A DNA stretch of 64,000 nucleotides, taken from IMG/VR virus record IMGVR_UViG_3300002060_000001, positions 1-64,000 of that record, one strand, 5' to 3'. The notes below the pieces were generated by a model. The model ran no database searches and had not been told where the DNA came from. It was given only the letters and a program-made list of their open reading frames with translations. Both the position numbers and the translations under genes were made by a program. The stretch is from a virus. This document shows, piece after piece, positions 2,888-54,348 of this stretch (the first letter of the stretch is position 1; the number at the start of each line of letters is the position of its first letter).

Positions 2888-4033
2888 CTAGACCCTCAAC
2901 GGCATGATGACAAAAAGACAGTCCTGATCCTCCTGATCAAGCAACAGGACGGGTGACGCGGGTCCGCTAAAGAACATTTCGGCGTCACGGCTTCCGATAA
3001 GCCCCAGAGCCTCTATCATATATTTTGAGTTCAGGCCTATATCGGTATTCTCACCCCCGAATGATGCCGAGACAACTTCATTCGCCTCACCTGTCTCGGA
3101 TGACCGGACATCTAGGCGAATTTCATCACTCGTGAGGGATAGCTTGATAGAGCGGGCCTTCTCTTTCGTTACCGTCGACACACGATCGATGGCGTCAGAC
3201 AAAATAGGACAATCAACCACTAGACGAGCATTTGAACGCGGGGGGATAACCCGCTCATAGTCAGGGAAAAACCCGTCAATGATTTTAGATGTCAGGGCGG
3301 CACTATGATGCTCAACACAAATCTTAGATTCCGTCACGGACATTTTGACCTGATCAGTGTCAGGGGACGAGTCAATCAAGCGCCTGATTTCCGCCGCCGC
3401 CTTACGGGGAATGATGACCCCCTCCATCCCGTCAGCGCCGTCAGGCAATGACATTGAGGCCTTTGCTAATCTGTGGCCGTCAGTTGCGACACACGTCAGT
3501 TGATCCTCTGTCTGGTGAAAATATATCCCATTCAGATAATAGCGCGTTTCCTCTGTTGAGATTGCGAACCGTGTTTTATCAATGAGGCGTTTCAGATCTC
3601 CCACCGTGAGGGTGAAATCATGCGCCTCACCCGTGTTCGTCATCTTTGGAAAATCGGCCGGCGGCAAGAGCGGTAGTTCAAAATTTGACCGCCCCGCGTT
3701 AATCTTAAGCCTAGCGCCATAAAAATCGCCGTCCTTTGGATTGTTTACCTCAACGCTGATAAGCGCCCCGTTAGGGAGTTTCCGGACAACATCATAGAGC
3801 GTCCGAGCCGGAACCGTGAATGACTTTTCATCCCCCTTGACCTCGATAGACTGAACCTCAAAAGTTTCCGTGATTTCAATATCAAGGTCAGTGGCAGTCA
3901 TAATCATGCTGTTGTCATCCCGCGCCTCAATCAAGACATTGCTCAAAATCGGAATAGTGTTGCGCTTTTCGACAACGCTCTGGGCTAGCTTCAGGGTGTC
4001 CATGAGGACTTTCTTTTCAACTTCGATTTTCAT
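2888..4033 (-). CDS. dnaN: DNA polymerase III beta sliding clamp (bacterial DnaN type)
   Basis: 381 aa, full-length DnaN-like. Diagnostic stretches: VVEKRNTIPILSNVLIEA...MTATDLDIEI...FPKM...RFAISTEETRYYLNGIYF...VATDGHRLA...IDGFFPDYERVIP...PVLL...FVIMPLRV. Confidence 0.95.
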   Translation of the reverse strand: MKIEVEKKVLMDTLKLAQSVVEKRNTIPILSNVLIEARDDNSMIMTATDLDIEITETFEVQSIEVKGDEKSFTVPARTLYDVVRKLPNGALISVEVNNPKDGDFYGARLKINAGRSNFELPLLPPADFPKMTNTGEAHDFTLTVGDLKRLIDKTRFAISTEETRYYLNGIYFHQTEDQLTCVATDGHRLAKASMSLPDGADGMEGVIIPRKAAAEIRRLIDSSPDTDQVKMSVTESKICVEHHSAALTSKIIDGFFPDYERVIPPRSNARLVVDCPILSDAIDRVSTVTKEKARSIKLSLTSDEIRLDVRSSETGEANEVVSASFGGENTDIGLNSKYMIEALGLIGSRDAEMFFSGPASPVLLLDQEDQDCLFVIMPLRV

Positions 4034-4175: not shown

Positions 4176-4856
4176 TCATAGAAACATATCCGGCTGTTCA
4201 TAGGCCTCCGATACACGCTGACACGCTATATCAAAGAACTTAGGGTCAATCTCAATGCCAGTCGCGGCCCTATTCATCTTTGTGGCCGCGACAAGCGTTG
4301 TTCCGGAACCCATATAGGGGTCAAGAATTGTGTCCTCTTTATCAAGATAGGATAGACACCACTGCATGACGGCTATCGGCTTTTGTGTCGGATGAACGGG
4401 CTTTTCGTTCTGTTCACTGTCCCGCACCATACCGTACCACCGATGATTTAAGCCCCTTATGGCTTTATCAAGATTTGTCCAGGCTAACTCGGCATGACCC
4501 TGATCCATTCGGGTGTTACCGTCAGCCTTAAACCAAACAAACCATGAGCGTGAGTTCGGAAGCTTATCCGCGTAACAGTTACCGCCCCACCAGATATGTT
4601 TATCGGCAAGCGGCAGGAATGGGCGCGGGTCAAAGTCCATATCTCCCGTGTCACCTATCAGTTGATCCTCTGGGCCAAAGTTCCGCTCCCTGACGGCGCT
4701 ATTCTTAGAGCCATGACGGGACGGCTTATAACCATAGCCATACGGTGGGTCCGCCACGATAGCCGTATGACGCGGAAAGTAAGGGTTTTTCACTATCTCA
4801 ACGCTGTCACCCAGAATAAGGCGGGACTTACCTATGATTTCCTCACGGATGATCAT
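4176..4856 (-). CDS. Beta-class N6-adenine/N4-cytosine DNA methyltransferase (CcrM-type fold)
   Basis: Motif IV DPPYG lies near the N-terminus and motif I DPYMGSGTT near the C-terminus. HPTQKPIAVMQWCL is also present. 226 aa. Confidence 0.9.
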   Translation of the reverse strand: MIIREEIIGKSRLILGDSVEIVKNPYFPRHTAIVADPPYGYGYKPSRHGSKNSAVRERNFGPEDQLIGDTGDMDFDPRPFLPLADKHIWWGGNCYADKLPNSRSWFVWFKADGNTRMDQGHAELAWTNLDKAIRGLNHRWYGMVRDSEQNEKPVHPTQKPIAVMQWCLSYLDKEDTILDPYMGSGTTLVAATKMNRAATGIEIDPKFFDIACQRVSEAYEQPDMFL

Positions 4857-5527: not shown

Positions 5528-5860
5528 TCACTGCGCGGCCCTTAATATAGTCAGGGCTTTATCCGCTCCGATGAGATTTATCAGGATGTTTAAGTCACGG
5601 TCACGAACCGACATAAGATACATTTCAGTCGGATAAACAGAGCGCGCCCTGTTAGGATTAACACGGATGCAACCCCGCTCTGATAGGGACATAACCAGTC
5701 GGTGAATACCTGACTTTGATGCTAAATTCATAGCATCCCGCATTTCATCATAGCTAGGGCTAAACCTATTCTCGGTGATGAACTTAACTATAAAATCCAT
5801 TAACTCAACTTGATGGGGTGTCATGCCCAGAAGCGGTTGATTTGACATAGCGCCTAACAT
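5528..5860 (-). CDS. LexA-type winged-helix DNA-binding protein lacking the S24 peptidase domain
   Basis: LTPHQVELMDFIVKFITENRFSPSYDEMRDAMNLASKSGIHRLVMSLSERGCIR matches the LexA N-terminal DNA-binding domain pattern. At only 110 aa there is no room for the Ser/Lys autocleavage domain. Confidence 0.6.
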   Translation of the reverse strand: MLGAMSNQPLLGMTPHQVELMDFIVKFITENRFSPSYDEMRDAMNLASKSGIHRLVMSLSERGCIRVNPNRARSVYPTEMYLMSVRDRDLNILINLIGADKALTILRAAQ

Positions 5861-6204
5861 TTGAGGCTATCCGACATCAAGCGAGTCTGCGAGACGTTCA
5901 GGTTATCAAAATAATCGGGATGCCACTGCGCTACCTCACCGACGCGCGTGTTCATCAAATCACTCGCCATGATGACGCCGTGCATAGCCCAACATAACTG
6001 AACATAATAGTGATGAATTGCCGCCTCAAGACGGATGGGTGGGGAGGCCTTGAGGCGGCGAGATAGCGGATTCCTCTGGGACGCAATCCGCTGATCTAAC
6101 TGTTTTTTAAACTCTTTAAAATCTTCCTGACGCCCAGTAAAACCAACGCCTTTGAACTTTTTGAGTGCGTTGATGTCGTCGCCATATGTGTTTGGATTTA
6201 TCAT
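5854..6204 (-). CDS. Hypothetical protein (116 aa)
   Basis: Track ORF, with ATGA-type overlaps at both ends. Confidence 0.5.
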   Translation of the reverse strand: MINPNTYGDDINALKKFKGVGFTGRQEDFKEFKKQLDQRIASQRNPLSRRLKASPPIRLEAAIHHYYVQLCWAMHGVIMASDLMNTRVGEVAQWHPDYFDNLNVSQTRLMSDSLKC

Positions 6205-6353
6205 TTTGATTGCTGTCCCGCCCGATAAGCCGCTTCAAGGGCCGATTTAATGTTCCAGACAGAGACATCATGGAAATCAAGCGAGTCGCTATTGCGCGTC
6301 TCAAGTGTCTCAATATCAAGTTCCTCTTTGGCTATGTCATCTAAAATTTGCAT
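6201..6353 (-). CDS. Hypothetical 50-aa protein
   Basis: Too short for the ORF track. GGAGAT is followed 4 nt later by ATG (6353-6351). Product: MQILDDIAKEELDIETLETRNSDSLDFHDVSVWNIKSALEAAYRAGQQSK. Its stop overlaps the next ATG (ATGA). Confidence 0.6.
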   Translation of the reverse strand: MQILDDIAKEELDIETLETRNSDSLDFHDVSVWNIKSALEAAYRAGQQSK

Positions 6354-6449
6354 CTTGATCTCCTAATCGGTGGACTTCATCGTCCTAAGATAATCACCTT
6401 AAATCATATTCGTGAGCCGCAGTCCAGTGAAATAACAAAAAAATGTTAT
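6354..6449 (-). promoter_or_regulatory. Promoter/leader cassette, copy A
   Basis: Minus-strand read: ATAACATTTTTTTGTTAT-TTCA-CTGGACTGCGG-17 nt-TTTAAG-...-AGGACGATGAAGTCCACC-GATTA-GGAGAT-CAAG-ATG. The same architecture occurs at 18625 and 52367. Confidence 0.6.
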
Positions 6450-6997
6450 TTTAATTTCTTGAGTTCATCAAATGGGCCTTCTTTCGCCCTCTGTGGCGTC
6501 TTTGGGAACCGCCTCTTATGCCATTCTCTGATCTGTCCATAGTTGACTTTACGGCTTATTGCCGCCGCATGACGGCATTGACCCGCGTCAAACATCCCTA
6601 TGTGGCATTCGTCTTTTGTCAGTTTCAGTTGATAGGCCAGAAAGTCATAACAGCGATGACGGGCCGATTGAGTGATAGTCCTGACCGCCAGATTGTCCCT
6701 AACACTTCCGGCATACGCGGGATCAAAAACGGCTTTTTTCCAGAGCGGATCAAAAGCACTATGGGCTATCTGACGCTCTTTCCGTAAAGCGGCATTCGCG
6801 GGACGGCCAAGCGGGCGGCCATTAGATTTATGGCTCCCGACATAGGCCTCACAGTTGTTACAATACCAATAAATCCCATCCTGCAGATCAGCCCGGTGCG
6901 GATATATAACCCGCCCCGTGACCTTACGGGCCTTCTGCGGGCAATGCATACAGATGGGCGCCTGAATGGGTTTCTTTTTGGTCTTTCTCTTAGTCAC
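6446..6997 (-). CDS. Zn-ribbon protein (DUF3268-like pattern)
   Basis: CMHCPQKA...IYPHRADL...YWYCNNCEAYVGSHK...PLGRPANAALRKERQIAHSAFDPLW...ECHIGMFD. I recognise this as the DUF3268-type phage Zn-ribbon family, from memory only. Confidence 0.5.
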   Translation of the reverse strand: MTKRKTKKKPIQAPICMHCPQKARKVTGRVIYPHRADLQDGIYWYCNNCEAYVGSHKSNGRPLGRPANAALRKERQIAHSAFDPLWKKAVFDPAYAGSVRDNLAVRTITQSARHRCYDFLAYQLKLTKDECHIGMFDAGQCRHAAAISRKVNYGQIREWHKRRFPKTPQRAKEGPFDELKKLK

Positions 6998-8111
6998 TCT
7001 TGAGGCTCAAAATTCTATCATATTGAGCCGCGGACTTGTCGGCTAGGAAATTCAATTCCTCACCATAGAGCGCGTCAAAGGCTTTCATTGAGATATTGCG
7101 TTTCCGATAGTCCTCAATGAGTGCGTCCGTGAACTCAACCCATTCCTTATCCGTCATATCGTCAGGATTTTGCGGGAACAGAACCTTATCATTTTTAGAT
7201 TTAGGCTCGTCTTTCGGGGCATCATCAAGAGGCTTACGACCTGTCTTTTTCTCACTGACGGGCTTATCGGCATCTTGGTCCGCCGCATTATCGGGCCTCT
7301 CATCAACCTTTTTTTCAGGCTCACGGCGTTCAGCCCGCCCGTCAATGACATTTCCGGCTGACCCCGCCGCCTTATCCGCCATATGCTGATTTAAGCGGTC
7401 GGCGGGCGTCTGGGCTTGTGTCGCGCTGAAATCGTACATCGTATCGTCACGACTAAAGACGTTCTGAACCTCACTGGATAGCGGGGCAAGTTTTGATGCG
7501 CGGCGGAGCGCCGTCTTGCGCCACATTTCACCCTCATGGGCCTTATTGAACCAAGGGCCGGAACGGGCTTTGACGGCGCTTTTAATGGCTAGGATTTCAT
7601 CCTTACCCATAACATCAAAATATTCACCGCCGTCTGTCGTTTTGACAAGCGCCCACGCACCTATCTTGTCACCGCGATTTTCAAGCGCCTGTTTATGGTG
7701 CAGATAAGTTTCTGTCCCGCGCTGAAAATCAAAATCATCATTCTTACAGATCAATCCAGTCTGAACGTCCTTGACCTCACCAGAATTACGCATCCGCTTG
7801 AGCAGTCCGCCGTACATCGGAATGTAAGTCGCACGGCCCTTAAAGGCTATGATAGCCGCCTCACGCTTACCGTCAGGGAATAGGCCGTCCATAGCGCACT
7901 GACGGAATGCTATCAGAAGTGACTTTTTGCCGTCAGCAGTCTTAAGGCAATCCATCAAATAATTGTCTGACTTAATCGCCCCGTTCATGGTTCGCAGAAA
8001 GCGCTCTGGGTCAACGCTTTCTGGTAAAAAGTCCGCAAGTTGATCCGCCGCGCTCTGAACGACGGGATGAAGGCTTTGCATAACCTTAGTTGAAATTTCA
8101 TTCTTAGCCAT
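6990..8111 (-). CDS. recT: RecT-family single-strand annealing protein with a long C-terminal extension
   Basis: ...AIIAFKGRATYIPMYGGLLKRMRNSGEVKDV...GAWALVKTTDGGEYFDVMGKDEILAI...GPWFNKAHEGEMWRKTALRRASKLAPLS. This is followed by about 130 aa of K/D/E/P-rich tail plus an extra helical domain. Confidence 0.85.
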   Translation of the reverse strand: MAKNEISTKVMQSLHPVVQSAADQLADFLPESVDPERFLRTMNGAIKSDNYLMDCLKTADGKKSLLIAFRQCAMDGLFPDGKREAAIIAFKGRATYIPMYGGLLKRMRNSGEVKDVQTGLICKNDDFDFQRGTETYLHHKQALENRGDKIGAWALVKTTDGGEYFDVMGKDEILAIKSAVKARSGPWFNKAHEGEMWRKTALRRASKLAPLSSEVQNVFSRDDTMYDFSATQAQTPADRLNQHMADKAAGSAGNVIDGRAERREPEKKVDERPDNAADQDADKPVSEKKTGRKPLDDAPKDEPKSKNDKVLFPQNPDDMTDKEWVEFTDALIEDYRKRNISMKAFDALYGEELNFLADKSAAQYDRILSLKSD

Positions 8112-10063: not shown

Positions 10064-10081
10064 ATCACATTTTTTTGTTAT
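10064..10081 (+). promoter_or_regulatory. Palindrome-family box ATCACA-T6-TGTTAT in the divergent control region
   Basis: Member of the ATAACA-W6-TGTTAT family. It lies in the 10029-10121 gap between divergent operons. TTGACG at 10087-10092 follows. Confidence 0.45.
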
Positions 10082-11539: not shown

Positions 11540-13021
11540 ATGTCAGGTATGCCCCACTCATTCGGCGTCGAGCAGTCACTGCTAGGCGCTTTAATTTTTG
11601 ACAATCAACAGATTGATCTGGTCGCGGATAAACTCTCCGAGGCCTCTTTTTTTGCCGAACAACATATCATTGTTTGGCGCGCGCTTCAGCAGATACGCCT
11701 TAAGGGCGGGATAGCTGACGCAAACACCCTTCTTGAATTTTTTGAGCGGGAAAATCAGTTAAAGAAAATCGGCGGCGATGAGTACCTAGCCCAGATGGTC
11801 AATAACGCGGCCCTTGAGCCTGAACTTGATGAATACACTGAAATTCTTGTTGACCTTCAACACCGCCGCGCGATGATCCGGATAGGACAGGCGCTTGAGG
11901 CTAGTTCCGTTAAACCTGAAATCGGTCAGGACTCATCCGATATAGCCGTCACGGCCCAGACGGAACTTTCTGCCATAATGATGGGAACAACCGTAAAGCC
12001 GGCCACAAATATCAAAGCCGGAATGAAAAAATATGTTCAAAAAGTCCGCGCGGGCAAAGAGGGAAATGTTGAATCCTGCCTATCGACGGGCTCTGAAGTT
12101 CTTAACCGCAGACTCGGCGGGGGTTTTTATAATTCAGACCTGATCATTCTCGCGGGGCGGCCCTCAATGGGTAAAACGCAACTGGCTCTGACGCTTCTTG
12201 AAAGTATGGCGTCAAGCGAGTCCGTGAAAGAGATTTCACAAGGTAAGAAAGCCCTAGTTCCGTTTTTCAGTCTTGAGATGGATGAGGAAAGTGTGTTCGG
12301 CAGAATGCTGACAACAAATAGTCATAAACGGTTCGGTAAACGGTACTCCTCACGGAAAATGCGCTCATATGACATCCCTGATCAACAGCTTGACGCCATA
12401 GAGGAACATCTTGAGGAATTGAGCGAAACAATGCTCATTGATGATCAGGGCGGGATCAAAATAAGAGATATGGAGGTCAGGTGTCTAAATATAGAACGGA
12501 CACACGGGCGGCCCATTGATGCTATCCTTGTGGATTATCTGCAAATCTTAACCGGAGCGCCCGATGACGTTAAGGCGGGTAAGACAGCAGAGGTCACGGG
12601 TATCTCTGCAGGGCTTAAGCGTCTGGCTAAACGCTTTGATGTCCCCGTTATCGCACTCGCTCAACTTAGCCGCGGTGTTGAAAGCCGTGATGATAAACGT
12701 CCTCAACTTTCAGATCTCCGAGATTCAGGCGCTATTGAGCAAGATGCGGATGTTGTGATGTTTGTCTATCGTGAGGCGTACTATCACGAGCGCGCTGAAC
12801 CAGACAGCTCAAGCGACAAACATCAAGCGTGGTCTGTGAAGCTTGAAAAGATCAGAAACGTGATGACGATCATAACCGCAAAACAGCGTCTCGGCCCCGT
12901 GGGTTCAGATGATATTTTCTGTGATGTATTCACCGGATATGTAGGGGACTGCAGTCCTACAGATATGCACGGCTCCGCCGCTCACAATGATCCCCGATGG
13001 TCTGGAAATAATCAGGCCTAG
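11540..13021 (+). CDS. dnaB: Replicative DNA helicase DnaB
   Basis: Walker A GRPSMGKTQLAL, FFSLEM, Walker B ILVDYLQIL, VIALAQLSRGVESRDDKRPQLSDLRDSGAIEQDADVVMFVYRE. Confidence 0.95.
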   Translation: MSGMPHSFGVEQSLLGALIFDNQQIDLVADKLSEASFFAEQHIIVWRALQQIRLKGGIADANTLLEFFERENQLKKIGGDEYLAQMVNNAALEPELDEYTEILVDLQHRRAMIRIGQALEASSVKPEIGQDSSDIAVTAQTELSAIMMGTTVKPATNIKAGMKKYVQKVRAGKEGNVESCLSTGSEVLNRRLGGGFYNSDLIILAGRPSMGKTQLALTLLESMASSESVKEISQGKKALVPFFSLEMDEESVFGRMLTTNSHKRFGKRYSSRKMRSYDIPDQQLDAIEEHLEELSETMLIDDQGGIKIRDMEVRCLNIERTHGRPIDAILVDYLQILTGAPDDVKAGKTAEVTGISAGLKRLAKRFDVPVIALAQLSRGVESRDDKRPQLSDLRDSGAIEQDADVVMFVYREAYYHERAEPDSSSDKHQAWSVKLEKIRNVMTIITAKQRLGPVGSDDIFCDVFTGYVGDCSPTDMHGSAAHNDPRWSGNNQA

Positions 13022-16950: not shown

Positions 16951-18639
16951 ATGCCTAGATTTGATGACGGGTTTAAAGAACAAATCCGTGATGCGGTCAG
17001 GGTCAGCCAGATAGTTGAAAAACATGTTAAGCTGAAACGGTCAGGCCGAGAACTTGTCGGCCTGTCCCCGTTCACGAATGAAAAAACCCCTAGCTTTTAT
17101 GTAAATGACGCGAAACAGTTCTATCACTGTTTTTCATCTGGGATGCACGGAGATGTGTTTGCCTTTGTGATGGAACTGCAGGGAATGACGTTTCCAGAGT
17201 CGGTTGAGTATCTCGCGGGCATAGCGGGGCTTGAGATGCCGTCCTATACGCCTCAACAGCGTCAACAGGACGACAGACGCAAGCTTTTATTTGCCGCGCT
17301 TAACGATGCACAGGACTTTTTTGTTCACTCATTAAAGAGTGAGGGAGCGGCTATCGCGCGTGAATACTTGGCTCACAGAAAGATTGATGAGGGTTCGGTG
17401 TCTAAATGGGGTCTGGGGTACGCGCCGCTCGTGTCCTCATCCCTGCCAAGCGCCCTAAAGAAACACAAAAAGGATATTTTGATTGAGGCGGGGCTTATCC
17501 GTGAAAACGCGCGCGGAACCTATGGGTTCTATCGTAACCGCCTGACATTCCCGATACGGGACAGGCAGGGCCGCGTCACATCATTCGGCGCCCGTGCGCT
17601 TGAGGATGATCAAAAACCCAAATATGTGAACGGTCAAGAAAGTCCGGTATTTAGTAAATCAAAGAACCTCTATGGCCTTAATGTATCGAGCGCCGCTATT
17701 GGTCTGAACCGTCAGGCGAACGGATTGATTTTGTCAGAGGGCTATCTTGATGTCATAGCCCTAGACCGCGCCGGAATACCACTGGGCGTCGCGCCATTAG
17801 GGACATCCGTGACAGACGATCACCTGACGGAACTCTGGAGATGGGGGCCGGAGCCTATTATTTGTCTTGATGGTGACAAGGCGGGTTATCGTGCTGCGGG
17901 AAAGATTATTGAAAAAACACTTCCCCGAATAGGCGGCGGGCGAACCGTTATGTTCGCAAGACTGCCGTCAGGACAAGACCCTGACGATGTTTTGCGTCAA
18001 GGCGGCCCTGAAGCTCTAAAAGCAATATTAAAATCCCCCGTCCCGATGCCTCGCCTGATATGGGAACGTGAACTTAATGTTGAGAGAACCGACACCCCAG
18101 AGCGGCGCGCGGCTTTTAAGGCGCGGCTTAATGAGCATACGGCGCTCATCAAAGACAAAGACACCGCCCGTCATTATCGGGACGCCTTCTATAGGTGGAC
18201 GCGGGATCACTACAGGCGAGGGCAGAAAAATGCATCCCAGTCACTGCAATCCGGCGGTGTCATAGGTCATAGGGGTCTTGGGATTTTAGTCAGTTGCATT
18301 GACAACCCGGAAATCCTTGAGGAAATTGATGAACAGTTAATCATGGCCGAGTGGTCTCCTGAATGTAAGGCTATTTTTGACCTATTGTTTTCAGCTTATA
18401 TGAACAATCTTGAAATCAATCGTGACGTTATAGTTGATGGACTTCTGGTTGATATGAACACAAACGCGGCTGATATTCTGGAATCATACCCGCGCGGAAA
18501 ACAGATAGAAAAAAACGGACATCAATGGCGTTCAATCATAGATTCTGTTTATCTCTTGCGGAAGGATGAGCATAAACCAAAGACCCTTGCGGACGCTATG
18601 CGGGAACAAGGCATCAGACGCAGAATAACAAAAAAATAA
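16951..18639 (+). CDS. dnaG: DnaG-type primase with a degenerate zinc-binding motif
   Basis: SPFTNEKTPSFYVNDAKQFYHCFSSGMHGDVF aligns to the canonical CPFHNEKTPSF...YHCFGCGAHG. TOPRIM motifs EGYLDVIAL and CLDGDKAGYRAA are present. Confidence 0.9.
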   Translation: MPRFDDGFKEQIRDAVRVSQIVEKHVKLKRSGRELVGLSPFTNEKTPSFYVNDAKQFYHCFSSGMHGDVFAFVMELQGMTFPESVEYLAGIAGLEMPSYTPQQRQQDDRRKLLFAALNDAQDFFVHSLKSEGAAIAREYLAHRKIDEGSVSKWGLGYAPLVSSSLPSALKKHKKDILIEAGLIRENARGTYGFYRNRLTFPIRDRQGRVTSFGARALEDDQKPKYVNGQESPVFSKSKNLYGLNVSSAAIGLNRQANGLILSEGYLDVIALDRAGIPLGVAPLGTSVTDDHLTELWRWGPEPIICLDGDKAGYRAAGKIIEKTLPRIGGGRTVMFARLPSGQDPDDVLRQGGPEALKAILKSPVPMPRLIWERELNVERTDTPERRAAFKARLNEHTALIKDKDTARHYRDAFYRWTRDHYRRGQKNASQSLQSGGVIGHRGLGILVSCIDNPEILEEIDEQLIMAEWSPECKAIFDLLFSAYMNNLEINRDVIVDGLLVDMNTNAADILESYPRGKQIEKNGHQWRSIIDSVYLLRKDEHKPKTLADAMREQGIRRRITKK

Positions 18640-18722
18640 GATTTTACTGGACTGCGGGACATTCGCGTGTATATGGTGAAAATCTATCAGGGCGATGAAG
18701 CCCACCTGATTTGGAGATCAAT
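18625..18722 (+). promoter_or_regulatory. Promoter/leader cassette, copy B
   Basis: ATAACAAAAAAATAAGAT-TTTA-CTGGACTGCGG-16 nt-TATATG-...-AGGGCGATGAAGCCCACC-TGATTT-GGAGAT-CAAT-ATG. Confidence 0.6.
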
Positions 18723-18974
18723 ATGAAAAACTGGACATTCACAACAGATTTCAAACATATCATCAAAGTTTTTGATGAAAACGGTGAATTATGCGCCGAC
18801 TTTTGTCGTGACAGCAAAGAGGATGCATTCCGTCTTTTCGTCTGCGGGATGCATAGGTCTGCGACTATCGGCGGTCAGCGCTTTAGTCTTACTCATAAAA
18901 AAACAGGGGAAAAGATCATAGACGGCGGTTTAATATTCCCTGCGAAAATAGATAAGGTTTTAGGATTGAAATGA
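18723..18974 (+). CDS. Hypothetical protein (83 aa)
   Basis: ATG at 18723, 6 nt after GGAG. The track ORF uses an upstream TTG. First gene after cassette B. Confidence 0.55.
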   Translation: MKNWTFTTDFKHIIKVFDENGELCADFCRDSKEDAFRLFVCGMHRSATIGGQRFSLTHKKTGEKIIDGGLIFPAKIDKVLGLK

Positions 18975-19216
18975 GCATCAAAACAGAAATGACCAAAGAT
19001 GAGTTTCTTGAACTTAGAACATCTTTAGGCCTGACCCGTGAAGAGGCGGCCCTTGTTTTAAATGTCAAGGTAGACACTCTGCGTAAATGGGATGGGAATA
19101 AAGACCGTCATCGGCCTATGGGGCCGCACCCAACTGCAGTTATGTACTTACAGGCTATCGCTAATAATCCTGATTTTATTCCGCCTTTCTGGCCTGAACG
19201 ATTACTGGAGGACTGA
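18971..19216 (+). CDS. XRE-like HTH protein
   Basis: EFLELRTSLGLTREEAALVLNVKVDTLRKWDGN is a classic HTH_XRE pattern. ATGA overlap with the upstream gene. Confidence 0.6.
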   Translation: MSIKTEMTKDEFLELRTSLGLTREEAALVLNVKVDTLRKWDGNKDRHRPMGPHPTAVMYLQAIANNPDFIPPFWPERLLED

Positions 19217-19217
19217 T

Positions 19218-19436
19218 ATGTCAAAAGAACAGCAGGTTTTTCTTAAGGTAAAAGATAGCTCTTCGACAAGAACTGTTGACTGGCCATTTCGTGAAATCCC
19301 TCAAATGGGTGACACGGTTTATGTTTTAGGTGTGGCTTATCGTGTCATCAATCGCGATTTTAGAACTGACGATATCGTTGATGAAGGCGGGGAGCCATCT
19401 GTCCGCATTAATGTCTGGATGGAACCATATAAATGA
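19218..19436 (+). CDS. Hypothetical protein (72 aa)
   Basis: ATG at 19218 with GGAG at 19207-19210 (MSKEQQVFLKV...). The longer track ORF 19092-19436 would overlap the previous gene. Confidence 0.5.
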   Translation: MSKEQQVFLKVKDSSSTRTVDWPFREIPQMGDTVYVLGVAYRVINRDFRTDDIVDEGGEPSVRINVWMEPYK

Positions 19437-21448
19437 AAGTCGGTTCAATATGTTCAGGGATAGAGGCCGCCAGTCAGGCCGCGCCTGATAATTGGGAGTT
19501 TGCCTTTTTTAGTGAAATTGAGAAGTTTCCGTCAGCGGTTCTGGCTCATCACTATCCTGACATCCCTAATCTCGGTGATTTTACAACTATCAAGGCGGGT
19601 GACTGGAAAGATGTCACGCTTCTGTGCGGCGGCCCGCCGTGTCAAACTTTCTCTATTGCGGGAAACCGTGGCGGTCTTAATGATGACCGTGGAAACTTAA
19701 CCCTTGAATACGTGAGGATGATGCATGACTTCGCAGACAATGGACTTATTTGGGGACTCTATGAGAACGTCCCCGGAATCTTGTCAGACAAAACAAATGC
19801 CTTCGGAAGTTTCCTTTCAGGAATTGTCGGTGGAGACGCTCCCTTATGTCCGCCCGACGCCACATGGGGTGAGCTCACAGACGATGACGGACAGCCACTT
19901 GGAACCTTTGGTTGGCAACAGATCAAATGGCCCAGTCAAGGTATGGTTGAGGGGCCACGGGCACGGGCGGCATGGGATGTTCTCGACGCTCAATGGTTCG
20001 GGTTGGCGCAACGACGCAAGCGTGTGTTTGTTGTCATCAGTTTTGCAAAAGACCGTGATCCCGCAAAAGTATTATTTGAGCGGAAAGGCGTGTTTGGGAA
20101 TACTCCGCCGAGCCGAAAAGCGGGACAAAGACTTACCGGAAAACCTATGGAGAGCTCTGGCGACAGTAGTAACAAAATCGGTGTTGATGGGGATAGGGAT
20201 AATGGCGAAAAAGATGAAATCTCAATTATAGACAGGGCCGCCTTTAACCAAGGGGCAAACGCCCTTTATGATCCTAAAATTGAGATAGGTGACTTGATGC
20301 CCGCTCTTGTCGCGCGCGGCCCCCACGCTGTCGGTCATAAAGAACCTGTCGGCGCTAGAATGGTAGCGTTTGGAGAGTATGAAATTGATGAAACAGCCTC
20401 AACTATAAAAGCCAGAGACTATAAAGATGCGACTGACCTTATAGCTTTTTCAGCTAAAGACTATGGCGGTGATGCCACCGAAAACCTAGCGCCGACAATG
20501 CGCGCGGGAAGCCATGATAAAAGTCACGCAAATAGCGGAAACTGGGTTGCTATAGCCGTTCAAGATGGACGTGAGATTGAAAAGAAGCAAAACGGGCTTG
20601 GTGTCAACACAGATAATATTGCCTATACTTTAGATAAAGCCGCAACCCAAGCAGTTGCATTTAAACCATCACATTATACTCGCGGAAAAGATGGTAAACC
20701 GTCAGAGATAACACCCCCCCTGACGGCTGACGCCGATAAAGGAGATCAAGACCCTGTTGTTTTAGCTCCAACACATCAAGAACCTTACACGCTTGAAATT
20801 AGGGGGCGTGATAGTGGCCGAGAACTTGAATATCGTGATGACGGAACGGCTAATTCACTGCGGGCCTCATCTGGCGGACGGGACGGAATGGGTGTCGGTG
20901 CTGTCGCATTTTCTCAAAACCTACGTGATGAAGTTCGACTGCAGGGCGGTGATGGTCAAATAGCGGGAGCGCTATCAGCAAGCCCCGGAATGAAACAGTG
21001 GACTTATATAGCCCAGACAGACAAAAAGCCTGTTTATGAGGTTCATGGGATGGATAGTAGGGTTTCTTTTTTAAGGGATGATTTATGCGGGACTGTCACC
21101 GCCAGATACGGAACAGGCGGAAACAATATTCCTATTACGCTTGACTATACCCCTTACGCAGTCCGGCGTCTGACGCCTGTTGAGTGTGAACGCCTTATGG
21201 GTTTCCCTGATAATTTCACCTTAATTGATTACACGAGCCGCGCGTCAGAGGTAAAGATTGCCGAAGACGTTGAACGGTATGCTATCAGAATGGGGTATGA
21301 TACGCAGGACGAAAATGTCATTCGTATGTTTATGTGTCCTGACGGCCCGCGCTATAAGGCTCTGGGTAACAGTTGGGCCGTTCCTGTTGTTAAATGGATA
21401 TTTGACCGGATAGAGGCGCAAGAATCAGCGCTGCGGGCGGCGGCATGA
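19433..21448 (+). CDS. Giant C5-cytosine DNA methyltransferase with an oversized variable region
   Basis: Motif I SICSGIEA, IV GGPPCQTFSIAG, VI ENVPG, VIII QRRKRVFVV. About 370 aa of variable region follow, then RRLTPVECERLMGFPDNFT and YKALGNSWAVPVVKWI (IX/X). Confidence 0.9.
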   Translation: MKVGSICSGIEAASQAAPDNWEFAFFSEIEKFPSAVLAHHYPDIPNLGDFTTIKAGDWKDVTLLCGGPPCQTFSIAGNRGGLNDDRGNLTLEYVRMMHDFADNGLIWGLYENVPGILSDKTNAFGSFLSGIVGGDAPLCPPDATWGELTDDDGQPLGTFGWQQIKWPSQGMVEGPRARAAWDVLDAQWFGLAQRRKRVFVVISFAKDRDPAKVLFERKGVFGNTPPSRKAGQRLTGKPMESSGDSSNKIGVDGDRDNGEKDEISIIDRAAFNQGANALYDPKIEIGDLMPALVARGPHAVGHKEPVGARMVAFGEYEIDETASTIKARDYKDATDLIAFSAKDYGGDATENLAPTMRAGSHDKSHANSGNWVAIAVQDGREIEKKQNGLGVNTDNIAYTLDKAATQAVAFKPSHYTRGKDGKPSEITPPLTADADKGDQDPVVLAPTHQEPYTLEIRGRDSGRELEYRDDGTANSLRASSGGRDGMGVGAVAFSQNLRDEVRLQGGDGQIAGALSASPGMKQWTYIAQTDKKPVYEVHGMDSRVSFLRDDLCGTVTARYGTGGNNIPITLDYTPYAVRRLTPVECERLMGFPDNFTLIDYTSRASEVKIAEDVERYAIRMGYDTQDENVIRMFMCPDGPRYKALGNSWAVPVVKWIFDRIEAQESALRAAA

Positions 21449-22047
21449 TTTATACAGATTTCAGCAAAATACCGCTCTTTGGTTATAATATGATTATGGC
21501 TGATCCGCCTTGGGAATTTAAACTGCGGTCAGACAAAGGTGAGGATAAAAGCCCTCAAGCACAATATAACTGCATGCCGCTTGATGAAATCTGCTCAATG
21601 AATGTGGCTGATCTGGCGGCGGGGAATTGCCTCTTATGGCTCTGGGTCACGAACCCGATGATTGATCAAGGGCTTGATGTTTTGAGGGCTTGGGGCTTTC
21701 AATTCAAAACGGCCGGCACTTGGGTCAAGATGTCAAAGTCCTGGACCGCCGACGGATGGAAAGACGGCAAAGAGCCTAAATTGAATTTCGGGACAGGTTA
21801 TATTTTGCGTTCAGCAAATGAACCGTTTCTTATCGGGACAATGGGGGATAACGATACAAGCAAATCCGTCCGTTCAGCCATAAGGGGTGCAGTTAGGGAA
21901 CATAGTCGCAAGCCCGATGAGGCGTACCGCGAGGCCGAGCGTCTTTTACCGAGCGCTTATAGGCTTGATATGTTTAGCCGTGAGGAACGGCAGGGATGGG
22001 ATTCTTTTGGTTTTGAAGCAGGGAAGTTCAATGAAAAAATGCAATAA
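21445..22047 (+). CDS. MT-A70 family N6-adenine methyltransferase
   Basis: IMADPPWEF catalytic motif and CLLWLWVTNPM...WGFQFKT...HSRKPDE. 200 aa. Confidence 0.85.
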   Translation: MIYTDFSKIPLFGYNMIMADPPWEFKLRSDKGEDKSPQAQYNCMPLDEICSMNVADLAAGNCLLWLWVTNPMIDQGLDVLRAWGFQFKTAGTWVKMSKSWTADGWKDGKEPKLNFGTGYILRSANEPFLIGTMGDNDTSKSVRSAIRGAVREHSRKPDEAYREAERLLPSAYRLDMFSREERQGWDSFGFEAGKFNEKMQ

Positions 22048-23300: not shown

Positions 23301-24962
23301 ATGGCCGAAAGTGAATTGATTAAAAAACACCCCGTTCCCGATGAGGCTCTTGACGGCGATATCATAATCCTAGCCAAAAAAGGCGCGGGAAAGACTGTCA
23401 CGGGCAAGAACATCGTTGAGGATTTATTGTCTCAAGGTGAACAGGTTGTCGTCATAGACCCTCTATCTGTCTGGTGGGGGCTGAAATCAAGCCCTGACGG
23501 TAAATCTGACGGATTTCCGATAGCTATATTCGGCGGCCCGCGTGGTGACGTACCGCTAAACCTAGACGCCGCTATCCCTTTAGCGAAAACGCTTGTCAAA
23601 AATAACCTTCCGGCGGTCATTGATTTGTCTGAATGGCTTGAGGAGGATCAGTCCTCATTCCTATCAGGGTTCTTGTCTGAAATCTATCAGGGCAATAAAA
23701 AGCCGATATGGATAGTTCTTGAGGAGGCGCATGAGTTTGCGCCCCAGACGGCAAATAGCGGTCAACAACATGCCTGTCTGGCTATGGTTCGCCGGATAGC
23801 CAAAGGCGGACGGTCAAAAGGCATTCGTCTCATAGCTATTACGCAACGGAACGCTGAATTGCACAAATCAATCGTCAGCGGCGCGAGTACCGTCATCGCA
23901 ATGAAAACAACCGCCCCGCTTGATCAAGCCCCCATCCTGACGTGGTTCAAGGGTAACGGGGACAAAGAGTTCTCGGCTAAGGTCAAAGACGGTCTGGGTA
24001 AACTTAAACGAGGCGAGGCCTTTATAGGCGCTGCGGATCAGGACTTTTTTGAGAAGGTTCAGTTTCCCCTTAACGGTACGTTTGACAGTTCATCAACCCC
24101 CAAGCGTGGCGAGACGCGCGATGAGCCCACGACACTGGCTAAGATTGACCTGACGGACATCAAAGAGGCTTTAAAGCCCAAAGAGGAACCCAAGCCTGAA
24201 AAGACCGTCAGCGCGGGTTCAGCATCGGCCTCGCAGTTGAAAGCTGAATATGAACGCGGAAAGTCTGACGCCGAGGCCGCGTCTAAACAGGACATTCGTG
24301 TCGGAAAAGATATAGCCTTTCAAAGAGGCCGTGCGTTCGGCCATAAGGAGTGCCTTGAAAATTTAAAGGTTCTGACGGATGAGCCTCAACCTTATTCCCC
24401 TTATGATAGTGAGGAGATCACCTCTCCCATCATTTATGGTGAGATTAAAACTGGAACTGTTATGGTTTCAGATGAAATTATGGGTCTGACGGTTGATGTC
24501 AAAACCTTTGATAAGAAAGTCCCAACATCAAACAGTAAAAAGAACGTATTGGTCCGGGCCGCGGAACGGGTCTATCCTGCTAAACTTACATGGTCAGCGT
24601 TATGCGCGACGGACGGGCGGAAATCACGCGGCGGACATTTTAACGGACTTAAAAAGAAAGCGCTCGATAGCGGACTGATACGGGATGAGGGCGGCCTTGT
24701 CGTCCTGACTTATAATCCACTGCCCCCCGGCGCAGAAAATCGGCCGGCGGCTGATCTGCTTGAGGAAAAACTCCCGCAACCCGCCCGAAAGATGTTCAGC
24801 GCTATCAGGCGTCATCCTCAACGTACTTGGGAGGAGATAGCCGAAATATTAGAGGTTCAGCCTCGCGGCGGACACTGGAATAGCGGACGCGCCGTTTTAA
24901 GAAACAGCAATCTTATAGATGAGAGAGGAAATTCTGTTCAAATACATCCAGATTTGACTTGA
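23301..24962 (+). CDS. HerA/FtsK-superfamily (DUF87-like) P-loop ATPase fused to two C-terminal wHTH-like repeats
   Basis: Walker A AKKGAGKTVTG, VVVIDPLSVWWGL, Walker B IWIVLEEAHEFAP, GGRSKGIRLIAITQRN. The C-terminus carries two similar modules with RGGHFNG and RGGHWNSG. Confidence 0.7.
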   Translation: MAESELIKKHPVPDEALDGDIIILAKKGAGKTVTGKNIVEDLLSQGEQVVVIDPLSVWWGLKSSPDGKSDGFPIAIFGGPRGDVPLNLDAAIPLAKTLVKNNLPAVIDLSEWLEEDQSSFLSGFLSEIYQGNKKPIWIVLEEAHEFAPQTANSGQQHACLAMVRRIAKGGRSKGIRLIAITQRNAELHKSIVSGASTVIAMKTTAPLDQAPILTWFKGNGDKEFSAKVKDGLGKLKRGEAFIGAADQDFFEKVQFPLNGTFDSSSTPKRGETRDEPTTLAKIDLTDIKEALKPKEEPKPEKTVSAGSASASQLKAEYERGKSDAEAASKQDIRVGKDIAFQRGRAFGHKECLENLKVLTDEPQPYSPYDSEEITSPIIYGEIKTGTVMVSDEIMGLTVDVKTFDKKVPTSNSKKNVLVRAAERVYPAKLTWSALCATDGRKSRGGHFNGLKKKALDSGLIRDEGGLVVLTYNPLPPGAENRPAADLLEEKLPQPARKMFSAIRRHPQRTWEEIAEILEVQPRGGHWNSGRAVLRNSNLIDERGNSVQIHPDLT

Positions 24963-24964
24963 GA

Positions 24965-24982
24965 ATAACAATAAATTGTTAT
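24965..24982 (+). promoter_or_regulatory. Near-perfect 18-bp palindrome ATAACAATAAATTGTTAT
   Basis: TTGACT at 24953-24958 lies 17 nt upstream of TGTTAT, and TATAAT overlaps at 24979-24984. The box sits 38 nt upstream of the ATG at 25021. Confidence 0.55.
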
Positions 24983-31981: not shown

Positions 31982-32299
31982 CTATTTTGGTTTTTTTGGG
32001 AATACCACGTCACTTGGATTATCACAAGATTTTGTTATATCGCGCAAAGTGTTACGATATTGATCGCGCCCCGCAAGCTGTTCTTTCGTTTTTCTGGCCC
32101 TATAGCTCACGTTATCCCAATAGTCTGTTTGAGCTAAAAGTTTTTTCGCTTTGGCCTTTATATCATTCGGGGTGACTTCAGCCGAATGTGACTCGCGAGC
32201 CTTTTCTGTTCTGCAAACATCACATCCATTTTTGCGGATGGTAAAGCTTGGCCTTTCTCTATCGCATTTAGGGCATTTTTTAATTTTATGTTTTGCCAT
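31982..32299 (-). CDS. Tail-fibre assembly chaperone-like protein with an N-terminal Zn ribbon
   Basis: CPKCDRE...CDVC is followed by QTDYWDNVSYRARKTKEQLAGRDQYRNTLRDITKSCDNPSDVVFPKKP. This matches the usual chaperone motif (dW...W..YR..LRDIt....P). It lies just downstream of the fibre gene. Confidence 0.55.
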   Translation of the reverse strand: MAKHKIKKCPKCDRERPSFTIRKNGCDVCRTEKARESHSAEVTPNDIKAKAKKLLAQTDYWDNVSYRARKTKEQLAGRDQYRNTLRDITKSCDNPSDVVFPKKPK

Positions 32300-52366: not shown

Positions 52367-52463
52367 ATCGTATTTTTCTGTTATTTTTCTCTGGACTGCG
52401 GTGTTTTTCCATGATTTATAGGTATTGTCTTAGGGCGATGAAGCCCACCTAGCGGAGATGACA
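52367..52463 (+). promoter_or_regulatory. Promoter/leader cassette, copy C
   Basis: ATCGTATTTTTCTGTTAT-TTTTCT-CTGGACTGCGG-17 nt-TTTATA-...-AGGGCGATGAAGCCCACC-TAGC-GGAGAT-GACA-ATG. Confidence 0.6.
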
Positions 52464-52799
52464 ATGACTAAAAACTACATGAAACAATTTTCAGATTTTG
52501 ATAACGCGGATGTTTTTGAGACTATTCTTGAGGGTTTAAAGCCTCACGGCTTTGATGACGGCTCATGGCGTAACGACTCATGCCCAAGCGTAGGGCGTGA
52601 AATTAAGGACGGTGATTATATCTCTGTCTTTGTTGATTACAAAAACCCAGACCTAGCAGAGTTTCCAGAGGACAGAAAAAGCGGTCAAATGAAAGTCATC
52701 ACTATTTATTCCCAAGTCGATGACACAACTTTTCAAACTGACGACACTGCAGAAGCCGTTTCAAAGGCTATTGAAATCTTTACAAGTCAGTCAGCGTAA
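52464..52799 (+). CDS. Hypothetical acidic protein (111 aa)
   Basis: ATG at 52464 chosen by analogy with cassettes A and B (GGAGAT, 4 nt, ATG). The track ORF starts 6 nt earlier. Confidence 0.55.
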   Translation: MTKNYMKQFSDFDNADVFETILEGLKPHGFDDGSWRNDSCPSVGREIKDGDYISVFVDYKNPDLAEFPEDRKSGQMKVITIYSQVDDTTFQTDDTAEAVSKAIEIFTSQSA

Positions 52800-53065: not shown

Positions 53066-53316
53066 TACCACCTGACCGCAATGAAACTGACATCCTCAAA
53101 ATGCGGTCTTACTTTTACGCCAAGATGCGGGAAAAGGATGACCCAGAGCGGAGCCGACGGATTTGGAATATCCAGAAAATACGGTGGAACCGCATAACCG
53201 ATAATGGGCGAAAGATGCCTCATTATGGGCTTCCTAAACAGGAAGTCAGAACCGTGACTAAGACCGTTGAGAGACTTAAAATCATCGTCCGTCACATTGA
53301 AATACGCGAGAATTAA
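53062..53316 (+). CDS. Hypothetical basic protein (84 aa)
   Basis: ATG at 53062 with an ATGA overlap (MIPPDRNETDILK...). Confidence 0.45.
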   Translation: MIPPDRNETDILKMRSYFYAKMREKDDPERSRRIWNIQKIRWNRITDNGRKMPHYGLPKQEVRTVTKTVERLKIIVRHIEIREN

Positions 53317-53329
53317 ACAGGAGACACTT

Positions 53330-53734
53330 ATGTCAAAACACGCACCACGAAAGCCTGACCCTATTGATGTTCATGTGGGAACACAAATCAGGCTCCGCCG
53401 TCAGGCATTAAAGATGAGCCAAGAAAAATTAGGGGACGCTTTAGGCATCACCTTTCAACAGGTTCAAAAATATGAGCGCGGGGACAACCGAGTCAGCGCA
53501 AGCCGTCTGCACAAGACAGCCGCCACCTTGAGAACGCCCGTTCAGGATTTCTTTCCTGCAGATAACGGGGAACAGAAAGCGCCCGCTAAACAAGCCGTTG
53601 CTATTCAGGATTTCATTTCAAGCACTAACGGCGTTAAGTTCGCAGAGGCTCTGTCAAAGATACCCCGTCGGATGGAAACTGAACTCTTAGCCCTCATCCG
53701 CGTGATGGGTAAATCTAAGCAACCTGTAGCATGA
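53330..53734 (+). CDS. XRE-family HTH transcriptional regulator (alphaproteobacterial type)
   Basis: ATG at 53330, 6 nt after GGAG. DVHVGTQIRLRRQALKMSQEKLGDALGITFQQVQKYERGDNRVSASRL is the conserved alpha-type XRE core. Confidence 0.8.
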   Translation: MSKHAPRKPDPIDVHVGTQIRLRRQALKMSQEKLGDALGITFQQVQKYERGDNRVSASRLHKTAATLRTPVQDFFPADNGEQKAPAKQAVAIQDFISSTNGVKFAEALSKIPRRMETELLALIRVMGKSKQPVA

Positions 53735-54152: not shown

Positions 54153-54334
54153 CAGAACCAACACCAGAGCAGAGGTTCAGCGGCATAAAGGGCGCTATCA
54201 TCAATGCCAATAAGAGCGCGAACCGGATTGAGTTCGACGGACCTAACTTTCAAACAGAGGTCACTGATCTGGCGTCTCGCCTTGAACTTATTGCCGGACA
54301 CCTAAGAACCTTAGCAAAAGACACTAGCGCGTAA
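54149..54334 (+). CDS. Hypothetical protein (61 aa)
   Basis: Track ORF with an ATGA overlap. Confidence 0.45.
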   Translation: MTEPTPEQRFSGIKGAIINANKSANRIEFDGPNFQTEVTDLASRLELIAGHLRTLAKDTSA

Positions 54335-54348
54335 CAATAAATTGTTAT
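54331..54348 (+). promoter_or_regulatory. Palindrome-family box GTAACAATAAATTGTTAT upstream of ssb
   Basis: 17/18 identical to the box at 24965. It lies 37 nt upstream of the ssb ATG. Confidence 0.5.

Follow-up and report, generated by a model that had tools for sequence, protein, structure and literature searches.

A hairpin leader before three operons of an uncultured phage and its possible role as an RNA operator of an Aca-like regulator

Why should one short leader precede the first genes of three different operons in a single phage genome? The question is raised by a window of 64,000 nt, the whole stretch of DNA analyzed here, from IMG/VR record IMGVR_UViG_3300002060_000001 (coordinates are positions in this window unless a contig is named). 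A first-pass annotation had described a promoter/leader cassette in three copies, comprising an AT-rich box, a -35/-10-like pair, a small hairpin, a Shine-Dalgarno (SD) sequence, and a start codon. All three copies were confirmed at 6449 to 6351 on the minus strand (copy A), 18625 to 18725 on the plus strand (copy B), and 52367 to 52466 on the plus strand (copy C), and they can be aligned over approximately 95 nt. The annotation had likened the hairpin to lambdoid nut sites and had named, as an alternative, a translational operator beside the SD or a 5' stabilizer stem; it is this alternative class that the evidence favors. Specifically, the hairpin could be a cis-acting RNA operator in the 5' untranslated region (UTR) of three early operons, serving a negative-feedback circuit of an Aca-like helix-turn-helix (HTH) regulator encoded at 18971-19216, a reading that we judge to have about an even prospect of being correct. 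The hairpin leader itself is real, strongly selected, and previously undescribed. The parts of the three copies are as follows.

18624-18643, plus strand: AT-rich box of copy B, AATAACAAAAAAATAAGATT, a half palindrome resembling an UP element; the same box stands at the orthologous site in two relatives described below (L176 and L178).
18647-18657, plus strand: CTGGACTGCGG box of copy B, a putative -35 region (TGGACT), with TATATG 16 nt further 3'; its promoter role is presumed, and it was not called by a consensus scan.
18690-18706, plus strand: hairpin of copy B, the reference copy, GGGC-GATGAA-GCCC with an invariant 3' ACC (44.5 bits; within the minimum-free-energy fold).
18713-18725, plus strand: SD GGAG (18713-18716) and ATG (18723-18725) of copy B, for an open reading frame (ORF) of 83 amino acids (aa; 18723-18974).
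6417-6427, minus strand: CTGGACTGCGG box of copy A; the consensus scan prefers an overlapping TTCACT-17-TATGAT (6431-6403).
6369-6385, minus strand: hairpin of copy A, GGAC-GATGAA-GTCC plus ACC, with G-C changed to A-U at pair 3 (42.3 bits).
6351-6364, minus strand: SD AGGAG (6364-6360) and ATG (6353-6351) of copy A, for a 50-aa ORF (6353-6201) matching DUF6900 (E = 1e-26).
52391-52401, plus strand: CTGGACTGCGG box of copy C.
52433-52449, plus strand: hairpin of copy C, GGGC-GATGAA-GCCC plus ACC (43.2 bits).
52454-52466, plus strand: SD GGAG (52454-52457) and ATG (52464-52466) of copy C, for a 111-aa ORF extending to 52799.

The three occurrences of CTGGACTGCGG listed above are the only exact ones in the window. 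Four matches were found when up to one mismatch was allowed, against 0.68 expected, and none of 100 shuffles reached four. Likewise, AGGRCGATGAAGYCCACC occurs perfectly three times and gains no further match even at three mismatches (0.18 expected; 0/100 shuffles reached three). A covariance model of the hairpin leader, built from 23 copies, recognized only copies A, B, and C when the window was scanned, the next best match scoring 11.9 bits (E = 0.39). In each copy the hairpin is followed by GGAGAT-N4-ATG. The ORFs behind the three hairpins are, as had been claimed, unrelated to one another; Pfam places the first in DUF6900 and has no match for the second or third. The conservation is strand-specific and tied to the starts of translation units, which supports the earlier view that it is regulatory.

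Conservation of the hairpin in related phages, a check that the first-pass annotation had called for, was borne out. Eight relatives on contigs of 13-70 kb (L072, L176, L178 [= L421], L179, L422, L501, L502, and L503) were found through an alignment of primases, which was needed, as a locus search with the single primase protein returned nothing. All eight carry the hairpin at orthologous sites. Site A is represented in L502, and site B, following the primase gene, in every contig that covers it (L176, L178, L179, L422, L501, L502, and L503), while the site C ortholog lies at 9153 of L072, in the same divergent gap adjoining an XkdF-like protease gene. The 17-mer GGGCGATGAAGCCCACC is unchanged in L072, L179, L501, L502, and L503. 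Of these five, L179 and L501-L503 nevertheless share just 54-57% primase identity with the window. Elsewhere the loop varies, to AGUGAA in L176, AAUGAC in L178, and AAUAGA or AAUCGA, followed by an AC tail, in L422. An outer helix (GGUG/CACC) enclosing the hairpin was considered and rejected, as it is not kept in the relatives.

The remainder of the leader has not been conserved to the same degree. Promoter-like boxes of the relatives differ (TTGAAA, TTGCAA, TTGGAC, and others), and L178 and L502 carry inserts of 50-200 nt between the promoter-like region and the hairpin while the spacing from hairpin to SD and ATG is unchanged. Because the 17-mer stays identical while promoters differ and inserts are tolerated, selection acts on the hairpin and on where it stands relative to the ribosome-binding site rather than on the promoter cassette. 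Treating the cassette as one unit was therefore an overstatement, as the relatives join an identical hairpin to quite different promoters. The site B inserts are GC-rich and apparently structured (11880-12100 of L178; about 11700-11776 of L502), and that of L178 ends much like a terminator, in CCGG..CCGG and a run of T; these inserts could be a small RNA or an attenuator. The relatives also have a fourth hairpin-led unit that is missing from the window. It comprises two genes of ~80 aa just downstream of the lysis/lysozyme cluster, at 12192 in L179, 18475 in L501, 18716 in L502, 13129 in L503, and 17961 in L422 (all on the minus strand), and a CTTATAAAAATAAG palindrome covers the -10.

When metagenome contigs were scanned with a degenerate pattern and chance coding matches were filtered out, the family grew by at least about 13 further phage-like contig groups with the same leader, several from marine samples (TARA and seawater time series among them). 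None has a detectable protein in common with the window. In these groups a -35/-10-like pair is commonly followed, after 9-15 nt, by GGGC-AAUGAA-GCCC-ACC, then by a CA-rich linker of 2-8 nt, the SD, and the ATG; the conserved core of the element is GGGC-RRNGAM-GCCC, ACC, 2-8 nt, SD, and ATG. More generally, the element has a G/C stem of 4-5 bp beginning with GG, a loop of 3-6 nt, and a near-invariant single-stranded ACC, with the SD 2-8 nt further on. The linker is G-poor, and the end of the hairpin lies 16-23 nt from the ATG in every copy seen. Measured from the best -10 candidates, the hairpin begins after 9-25 nt, such that it would lie near predicted transcription starts. Loop variants are uniform within a phage (GAUGAA in the window, AAUAGA/AAUCGA in L422, and AANGAC in L298). 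Contig L298 has four copies within 1.9 kb, the second of them promoter-less and placed between genes inside an operon, and a promoter-less copy at 2973 of L531 directly precedes an HTH gene.

Searches for a described counterpart were negative, in agreement with the earlier statement that no such element was known. Rfam gave no match at the gathering score in the whole window, with only meaningless subthreshold matches in E-value mode, and a blastn search of 50,697 cultured-phage records with a 42-nt consensus gave chance matches only. The full-text literature search for the sequence returned only unrelated papers. An exact search of IMG/VR for the -35 box plus GATGAAG yielded 58 loci, all of them chance or coding matches; the 17-mer alone gave at least 117 matches, nearly all inside high-GC genes, the real ones among the matches listed being L072 and L126.

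Two sets of copies lie in other surroundings. In L266 (metagenome contig Ga0063455_100007205, 2.3 kb, GC-rich), a hairpin variant stands before each of four tandem paralogous small genes (MTIKTNVKAGG...), and at 762-808 of L415, from an alphaproteobacterial metagenome-assembled genome (MAG; CAVSCT010000014.1), a GGGCGAUGACGCCC-ACC leader precedes the first of three tandem small secreted-protein genes. The element may thus exist outside phage or HTH contexts. Together with the occurrence of one hairpin in at least about 13 contig groups that share no detectable protein with the window, these copies speak for a site read by a host factor or machinery. The reader could be the ribosome or an RNA-binding protein, or else RNase P, for which the hairpin would pass as a minihelix of the tRNA-acceptor type that ends in ACC(A); the hairpin would then have been taken up as a mark of early mRNAs by many phages infecting one host clade. 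As read from the sequences, the element does consist of a helix followed by A-CC and often a further A, which we take to resemble the end of a tRNA acceptor. However, the base after ACC is variable (A, U, G, and C were all seen), a 4-bp stem would be a poor RNase P substrate, and uniform variants within each phage fit a phage-specific partner better. Furthermore, a scan of bacterial genomes gave almost exclusively chance coding matches, with one plausible host example among the matches listed. We consider recognition by a host factor quite unlikely. A narrower version holds that the G/C helix, discriminator A, CC, and frequent A form a minihelix read by core machinery of marine Alphaproteobacteria without any phage protein, for example in RNase P processing or a dedicated ribosome-loading route, and that it was adopted by unrelated phages and a few host genes for high early expression; to this we attach a very small probability.

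The element could act as RNA or as duplex DNA, and several observations bear on the choice. Among close copies, all 168 of 168 pair cells are paired (42 copies), with one compensatory event, in copy A. There the stem is GGAC/GTCC against GGGC/GCCC in copies B and C, as originally described, and since the L502 ortholog (147, minus strand) has GGGC/GCCC, the change is a true double, pair-preserving substitution. We estimate a chance of ~1% that two random substitutions in the 17-mer would land on paired positions and stay complementary. Stem variants across the family are GGAC/GUCC (copy A), GGGCC/GGCCC, GGGGC/GCCCC, GGAGC/GCUCC, and GGAUC/GAUCC, with wobble forms GGGU/GCCC and GGCC/GGUC, the distant ones having come from scans that required pairing. 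Loops of 3, 4, or 6 nt occur among these variants, while the ACC and the distance to the SD persist; the 3' flank is ACC in distant copies and GCC in some closer ones. The hairpin, with compensatory change in the wider family, stands as the core of the element. An upstream ORF or start codon in the loop (AUG or GUG) was rejected as an explanation, given loops such as AAUAGA/AAUCGA in L422 and AACGAC/AAGGAC in L298 and in-frame stops that are not conserved.

If the same bases functioned solely as a double-stranded DNA operator (GGGC-N6-GCCC at about +5 to +20), a dimeric repressor would block RNA polymerase without any role for RNA. The centers of the half-sites are 10 bp apart, as in the operators of phage 434, the outer 4 + 4 bases are invariant while the center is variable (RRNGAM) among close copies, and the element is accompanied by an HTH gene. 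In the -35/-10 spacer of many related modules, the GGGC(C)/G(G)CCC half-sites reappear as an untranscribed inverted repeat. However, half-site spacing ranges from 3 to 6 nt across the family, stems of the G.U type (in L266, in L531, and in the L509 spacer) are not DNA palindromes, the conserved flank is one-sided (a 3' ACC with no 5' GGT), and copies far from any promoter keep their SD spacing. The double change in copy A likewise preserves pairing. Since half-site spacing varies, G.U pairs occur, the flank is conserved on one side only, and some copies stand far from any promoter, an RNA hairpin is favored, and we give an exclusively DNA-level operator a low probability.

An RNA hairpin in this position need not have a protein partner. 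5'-Terminal stem-loops are established mRNA stabilizers, with the ompA leader and the T7 gene 10 leader as examples, and the hairpin could be a protein-independent 5' stabilizer or insulator that shields early mRNAs from 5'-end-dependent RNase E/RppH or RNase J, while the unstructured ACC and CA-rich linker keep the SD accessible and any HTH link reflects co-inheritance only. Its location near the predicted 5' end is consistent with such a role, as are the G-poor linker, the finding that it is the sole stable local structure in the predicted leaders, and the existence of several contigs with the hairpin and no nearby HTH gene. A stabilizer would need structure and not sequence, yet all 17 nt, including loop and ACC, are identical across phages whose primases are ~55% identical, neighboring promoter bases have diverged while those 17 nt stayed, and the ACC tail is kept even where stem and loop changed. 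The predicted folding energies of the leaders are not unusual (z-scores of -0.45 to -1.74). In addition, the copies deep within transcripts (L178, L502, L298 copy 2, and L531) would not be 5'-terminal caps unless the RNA were processed there. On balance, a stabilizer acting on its own is rather unlikely.

A candidate partner is suggested by the genes that accompany the hairpin. An all-against-all ORF comparison of unrelated contigs found a single recurrent family, HTH proteins of 58-88 aa that include the product of the second gene of operon B. Homologs of this protein are encoded 40-1000 nt downstream of the hairpin in 8/8 relatives covering the site and in five unrelated contigs (L181, L253, L261, L275, and L284). 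In operon B the HTH gene follows the 83-aa ORF, and the same order is found in the relatives and in the five unrelated contigs. The association was also seen from the protein side. When 30 IMG/VR loci were retrieved with the HTH subalignment alone and then searched with the RNA model, 21 had a match, all on the strand of the HTH gene and all upstream of it, and a looser scan for hairpin, ACC, SD, and ATG was positive in about 24 of the 29 HTH loci having enough upstream sequence. For comparison, phage loci related through the primase but in no other way (1.38 Mb) contained no hairpin match outside close relatives. All told, the hairpin recurs in dozens of other marine phage contigs, in most cases shortly before a small gene for a DNA-binding regulator. 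The linked HTH protein and two alternative regulator candidates from the other hairpin-led operons are listed here.

18971-19216, plus strand: 81-aa HTH protein of the XRE family, MqsA/Aca3-like, encoded by the second gene of operon B and a candidate for the trans-acting partner of the hairpin.
5528-5860, minus strand: 110-aa protein with a LexA_DNA_bind domain (E = 1.4e-13), operon A, alternative regulator candidate.
53267-53734, plus strand: 155-aa HTH_3 protein (E = 1.3e-11; L072 homolog 57% identical), operon C, alternative regulator candidate.

Assignment of the HTH family relies on profile comparisons. Against Pfam, members gave weak matches to HTH_3, Xre-like, MqsA, and Aca2/YdiL entries, nearly all of them below cutoff; the window protein matched HTH_3 at E = 0.003, below the cutoff, which was just cleared only by the L261 and L275 members. 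TIGR03830 matches 12/12 members, all below its cutoff. A family profile run against the Protein Data Bank (PDB) placed MqsA (3FMY, 1e-7) and Aca3 (9VT3, 5e-6) at the top, also with HigA-2 and Aca1, and the closest known counterpart of the family may be the C-terminal HTH domain (XRE family) of Aca3 and MqsA. The clade of L284, L253, and L181 is 43% identical to Aca3 over 37 aa. The window protein shows no pairwise BLAST similarity to a 41-residue N-terminal Aca3 fragment (PDB 9VT3 residues 12-52) and joins the family only via L261 and L275 (31-38% identity). PF08965 (DUF1870, Aca2) does not match the window protein at E ≤ 0.1; its match to the L181 homolog has E = 0.03 and 14.9 bits against a cutoff of 23.8, and Aca2 chains in the PDB gave E = 0.15-1.3. 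No pattern was found when covariation between the HTH recognition helix and the loop was considered.

Regulators of this general kind are known to act on RNA. Through its HTH, Aca2 binds promoter DNA as well as hairpins in the 5' UTR, and the ribosome-binding site is thereby blocked (Birkholz et al. 2024 Nature, as described in PMC13551039); the RNA target of Aca1 is one stem-loop in the 5' UTR (Feussner et al. 2026, PMC13551039). In acr-aca operons, an inverted repeat overlies the promoter, transcription starts 10-15 nt later, and the RNA motif lies at the beginning of the 5' UTR at a fixed position relative to the start codon, and one Aca regulator can serve several operons (PMC13551039). 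RNA motifs have been reported for Aca1, Aca2, Aca10, and Aca12 only, the covariation signal being insufficient for other aca operons (PMC13551039). Aca3 represses the promoter of its own operon, and its closest structure is MqsA (PMC9410906).

It is because the layout here resembles that of acr-aca operons that the window hairpin is read as an Aca-like RNA operator. As with Aca2 and Aca1, a small HTH gene lies downstream of small variable genes in one operon, a conserved hairpin stands at the predicted start of the 5' UTR, adjoining the ribosome-binding site at a fixed distance from the start codon, and extra copies of the motif, in lineage-specific variants, precede neighboring operons or stand between genes. 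An inverted repeat over the promoter is likewise present in L284, L253, L275, L298, and L505-L531 (GGGCC-N3-GGCCC before the -10). In contrast to Aca2, the window HTH protein is not of the DUF1870/Aca2 family (PF08965), and a single 14-nt hairpin with an ACC tail takes the place of Aca2's two hairpins; unlike MqsA, the protein has no zinc-ribbon domain and no MqsR-like toxin gene beside it. The regulated operons also differ from acr-aca operons, as they carry replication, recombination, and methyltransferase genes of a ~64-kb marine phage and no gene recognized as acr. Under an Aca-like circuit, the three operons would be transcribed early in infection by host RNA polymerase, and the HTH protein would build up and bind the hairpin on each leader, with the corresponding duplex DNA at about +5 to +20 perhaps bound as well. 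The adjacent ribosome-binding site would then be occluded, and translation of all hairpin-led operons would be throttled jointly. Aca2 acts on anti-CRISPR operons in this manner, and Aca1 does so as far as RNA binding goes. In this scheme the transcription start, RNA binding by the HTH protein, and repression as the direction of regulation are what we infer.

In other lineages, the promoters before the hairpin (those in L284, L253, L275, L223, L298, L505-L509, L521-L524, L530, and L531) carry a GC-rich inverted repeat, GGGC(C)-N3-5-G(G)CCC, whose end coincides with the -10 (TATAWT). Its half-sites match the hairpin stem, and the repeat is likely a DNA operator of the same HTH protein.

Several points weigh against an Aca-like RNA operator. 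The LexA-domain and HTH_3 proteins are encoded in hairpin-led operons and are equally well placed as partner. No HTH homolog was found within the available 1-3 kb of L126, L250, L278, L288, and L298, and none lies near the L266 or L415 hairpins, the latter finding hinting that the factor is not phage-encoded. Loop sequence does not follow HTH clades, and the association of hairpin and HTH gene could be mere co-inheritance of the leader with its operon. The window promoters lack the GC-rich inverted repeat. As for action at the RNA level, the stem is invariant among close copies, resembling a dimeric operator with fixed half-sites, and the distant variants are not an unbiased test of covariation, since the scans that found them required pairing. 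Finally, RNA binding by Aca1 gave no translational silencing in reporters (PMC13551039).

The lambdoid comparison fared less well than the operator reading. Under it, an N-type antiterminator would bind the hairpin and render RNA polymerase resistant to terminators. As in boxB of lambda nutL/nutR, a short G/C stem with a purine-rich loop lies close behind early promoters, in early leaders, and is identical within a phage and variable between phages. However, boxA is absent, since no column is conserved among the ten bases 5' of the hairpin, either in the 23 copies or in the orthologs, and no conserved boxA-like sequence occurs on either side. The position of the hairpin, 16-23 nt from the start codon, is fixed to the SD and ATG and not to terminators, and dedicated hairpins before single internal genes (L298 and L531) are unlike a nut arrangement. 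No sign of terminator override was seen; a crude scan, with counts near shuffle expectation, called no strong internal terminator in operon C before 55081. Pfam recognized no known antiterminator domain in the scanned genes, and no RNA-binding or N-like domain in the first genes behind the three hairpins, although no dedicated search for arginine-rich N termini was made. A nut-like function is extremely unlikely. Other repeated phage elements offer partial parallels. The SAS/ESAS of Cluster K mycobacteriophages are short motifs repeated just upstream of several translation starts, and the T4-type PeSL combine a promoter with a stem-loop in units that recur throughout a phage genome. The SD is itself part of the SAS, the stem-loop of PeSL stands ahead of the promoter, and neither is linked to an HTH gene; both differ from the present element in sequence and in host group.

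The promoter-like parts of the leader were also examined. With TGGACT taken as the -35, the distance between CTGGACTGCGG and TG-n-TTTAAG, TG-n-TTTATA, or TATATG suits an extended -10 promoter, in line with the pair proposed earlier. A simple sigma-70 consensus scan called a promoter in copy A only, and there a different pair (TTCACT-17-TATGAT), so that both the -35/-10 assignment and the transcription start remain putative. Outside the window, CTGGACTGCGG has only near-forms, in L176 (CTGGACTGGG) and L072 (TTGGACATCCGG). Judged by eye, a sigma-54 or extracytoplasmic function (ECF)-type promoter is unsuited to the spacing and partner elements of CTGGACTGCGG. A promoter of a phage-encoded RNA polymerase, starting at GGG, was also rejected, as the two large orphan proteins of the window (869 and 480 aa) look like fiber proteins.

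The AT-rich box had been described as a shared first part of the cassette. The full palindrome stands in copy A and not in copy B or C, and it belongs to a separate motif with 12 sites.

6432-6449, no strand assigned: perfect palindrome ATAACA-N6-TGTTAT upstream of copy A, part of the 12-site motif.

This 18-bp motif has 12 sites in the window at up to two mismatches against 2.05 expected, a number that 0/100 shuffles reached. Besides the site at copy A, they lie at 10064-10081, 24965-24982, 32021-32038, 54331-54348, 55848-55865, 57127-57144, and 63188-63205, with four weaker ones, and are mostly found in intergenic gaps or at gene boundaries. Copy A has the sole full site among the three leaders, upstream of the -35 and not over the promoter; relatives have CTTA-W6/7-TAAG at the position of the box. 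The palindrome probably serves another regulator as its operator, possibly the LexA-domain or HTH_3 protein, or acts as an UP-like element.

The wider setting is that of a phage whose window has a G+C content of ~48% and encodes a DnaB-like helicase, a DnaG-type primase, several DNA methyltransferases, a major head protein, a DNA polymerase III beta clamp, SSB, a LexA-domain protein, and an XRE-family protein. The 498-aa product of 46164-47660 matches a PHROG minor tail protein family, and that of 6990-8111 is 70% identical to an L178 gene product annotated as RecT (Pfam). Nearest cellular relatives of the primase are the alphaproteobacterial DnaG proteins of Litorimonas, Henriciella, and Hyphomonas, and capsid proteins of Rhizobium, Pseudomonas, and Roseobacter phages match that of the window at only 31-35% identity. 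At the DNA level the window has no close counterpart among cultured phages, and no tRNAs were found in it.

Replication, recombination, and methyltransferase genes populate the hairpin-led operons. Copy A follows a DUF3268 gene and copy B the primase gene, both inside same-strand gene runs, such that placement at a strand switch holds for copy C alone, in the divergent gap between the head-protease gene and the rightward operon. Operons A and B carry DNA methyltransferase genes further down. Operon C extends to 55054, the end of a 55-aa ORF, shortly before a strong intrinsic terminator at 55081-55100 on the plus strand (AGGCGGGG-AAAG-CCCCGCCT followed by TTTTTATT) that closes it, and the ParB-like methyltransferase gene at 55864-57123 sits past this terminator. 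At least four DNA methyltransferase genes are present in total (4176-4856, 19433-21448, 21445-22047, and 55864-57123).

Further observations concern the gene content of the window. The bacterial-type replication set is unusually complete, with a beta clamp (2888-4033, minus), DnaB (11540-13021, plus), a full-length DnaG closest to Hyphomonadaceae DnaG (16951-18639, plus), SSB (54386-54877, plus), and RecT (6990-8111, minus). The first gene behind copy A (6201-6353, minus) encodes the 50-aa DUF6900 protein, of a conserved family of unknown function, and occupies the slot that antidefense genes take in acr-aca operons. Two large ORFs on the minus strand, 59211-61820 (869 aa) and 57694-59136 (480 aa), have no Pfam, PHROG, or significant PDB sequence match and almost no phage homologs; their Gly/Thr/Asn/Ser-rich composition suggests fiber or beta-helix receptor-binding proteins. 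Neither a large terminase nor a portal was recognizable in the window, and the 553-aa ORF at 23301-24962 has only weak terminase/FtsK-like P-loop matches.

Overall, while the hairpin leader is undescribed, its mechanism is plausibly of a known type, that of an HTH autoregulator with a 5'-UTR RNA motif. Under a stabilizer or host-factor explanation, it would represent a widely shared leader that secures early phage expression. The short, highly specific combination of hairpin, ACC, and SD marks early or antidefense-type operons, and the small unknown genes behind it, in marine viral metagenomes, and translational control could draw on it as a compact candidate part. If the Aca-like explanation is correct, a further HTH lineage, MqsA/Aca3-like, would use a 5'-UTR RNA hairpin as Aca2 and Aca1 do. 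Dual-layer control would then not be confined to anti-CRISPR operons and would coordinate an early regulon of replication, recombination, and methylase genes in an uncultured family of marine phages.

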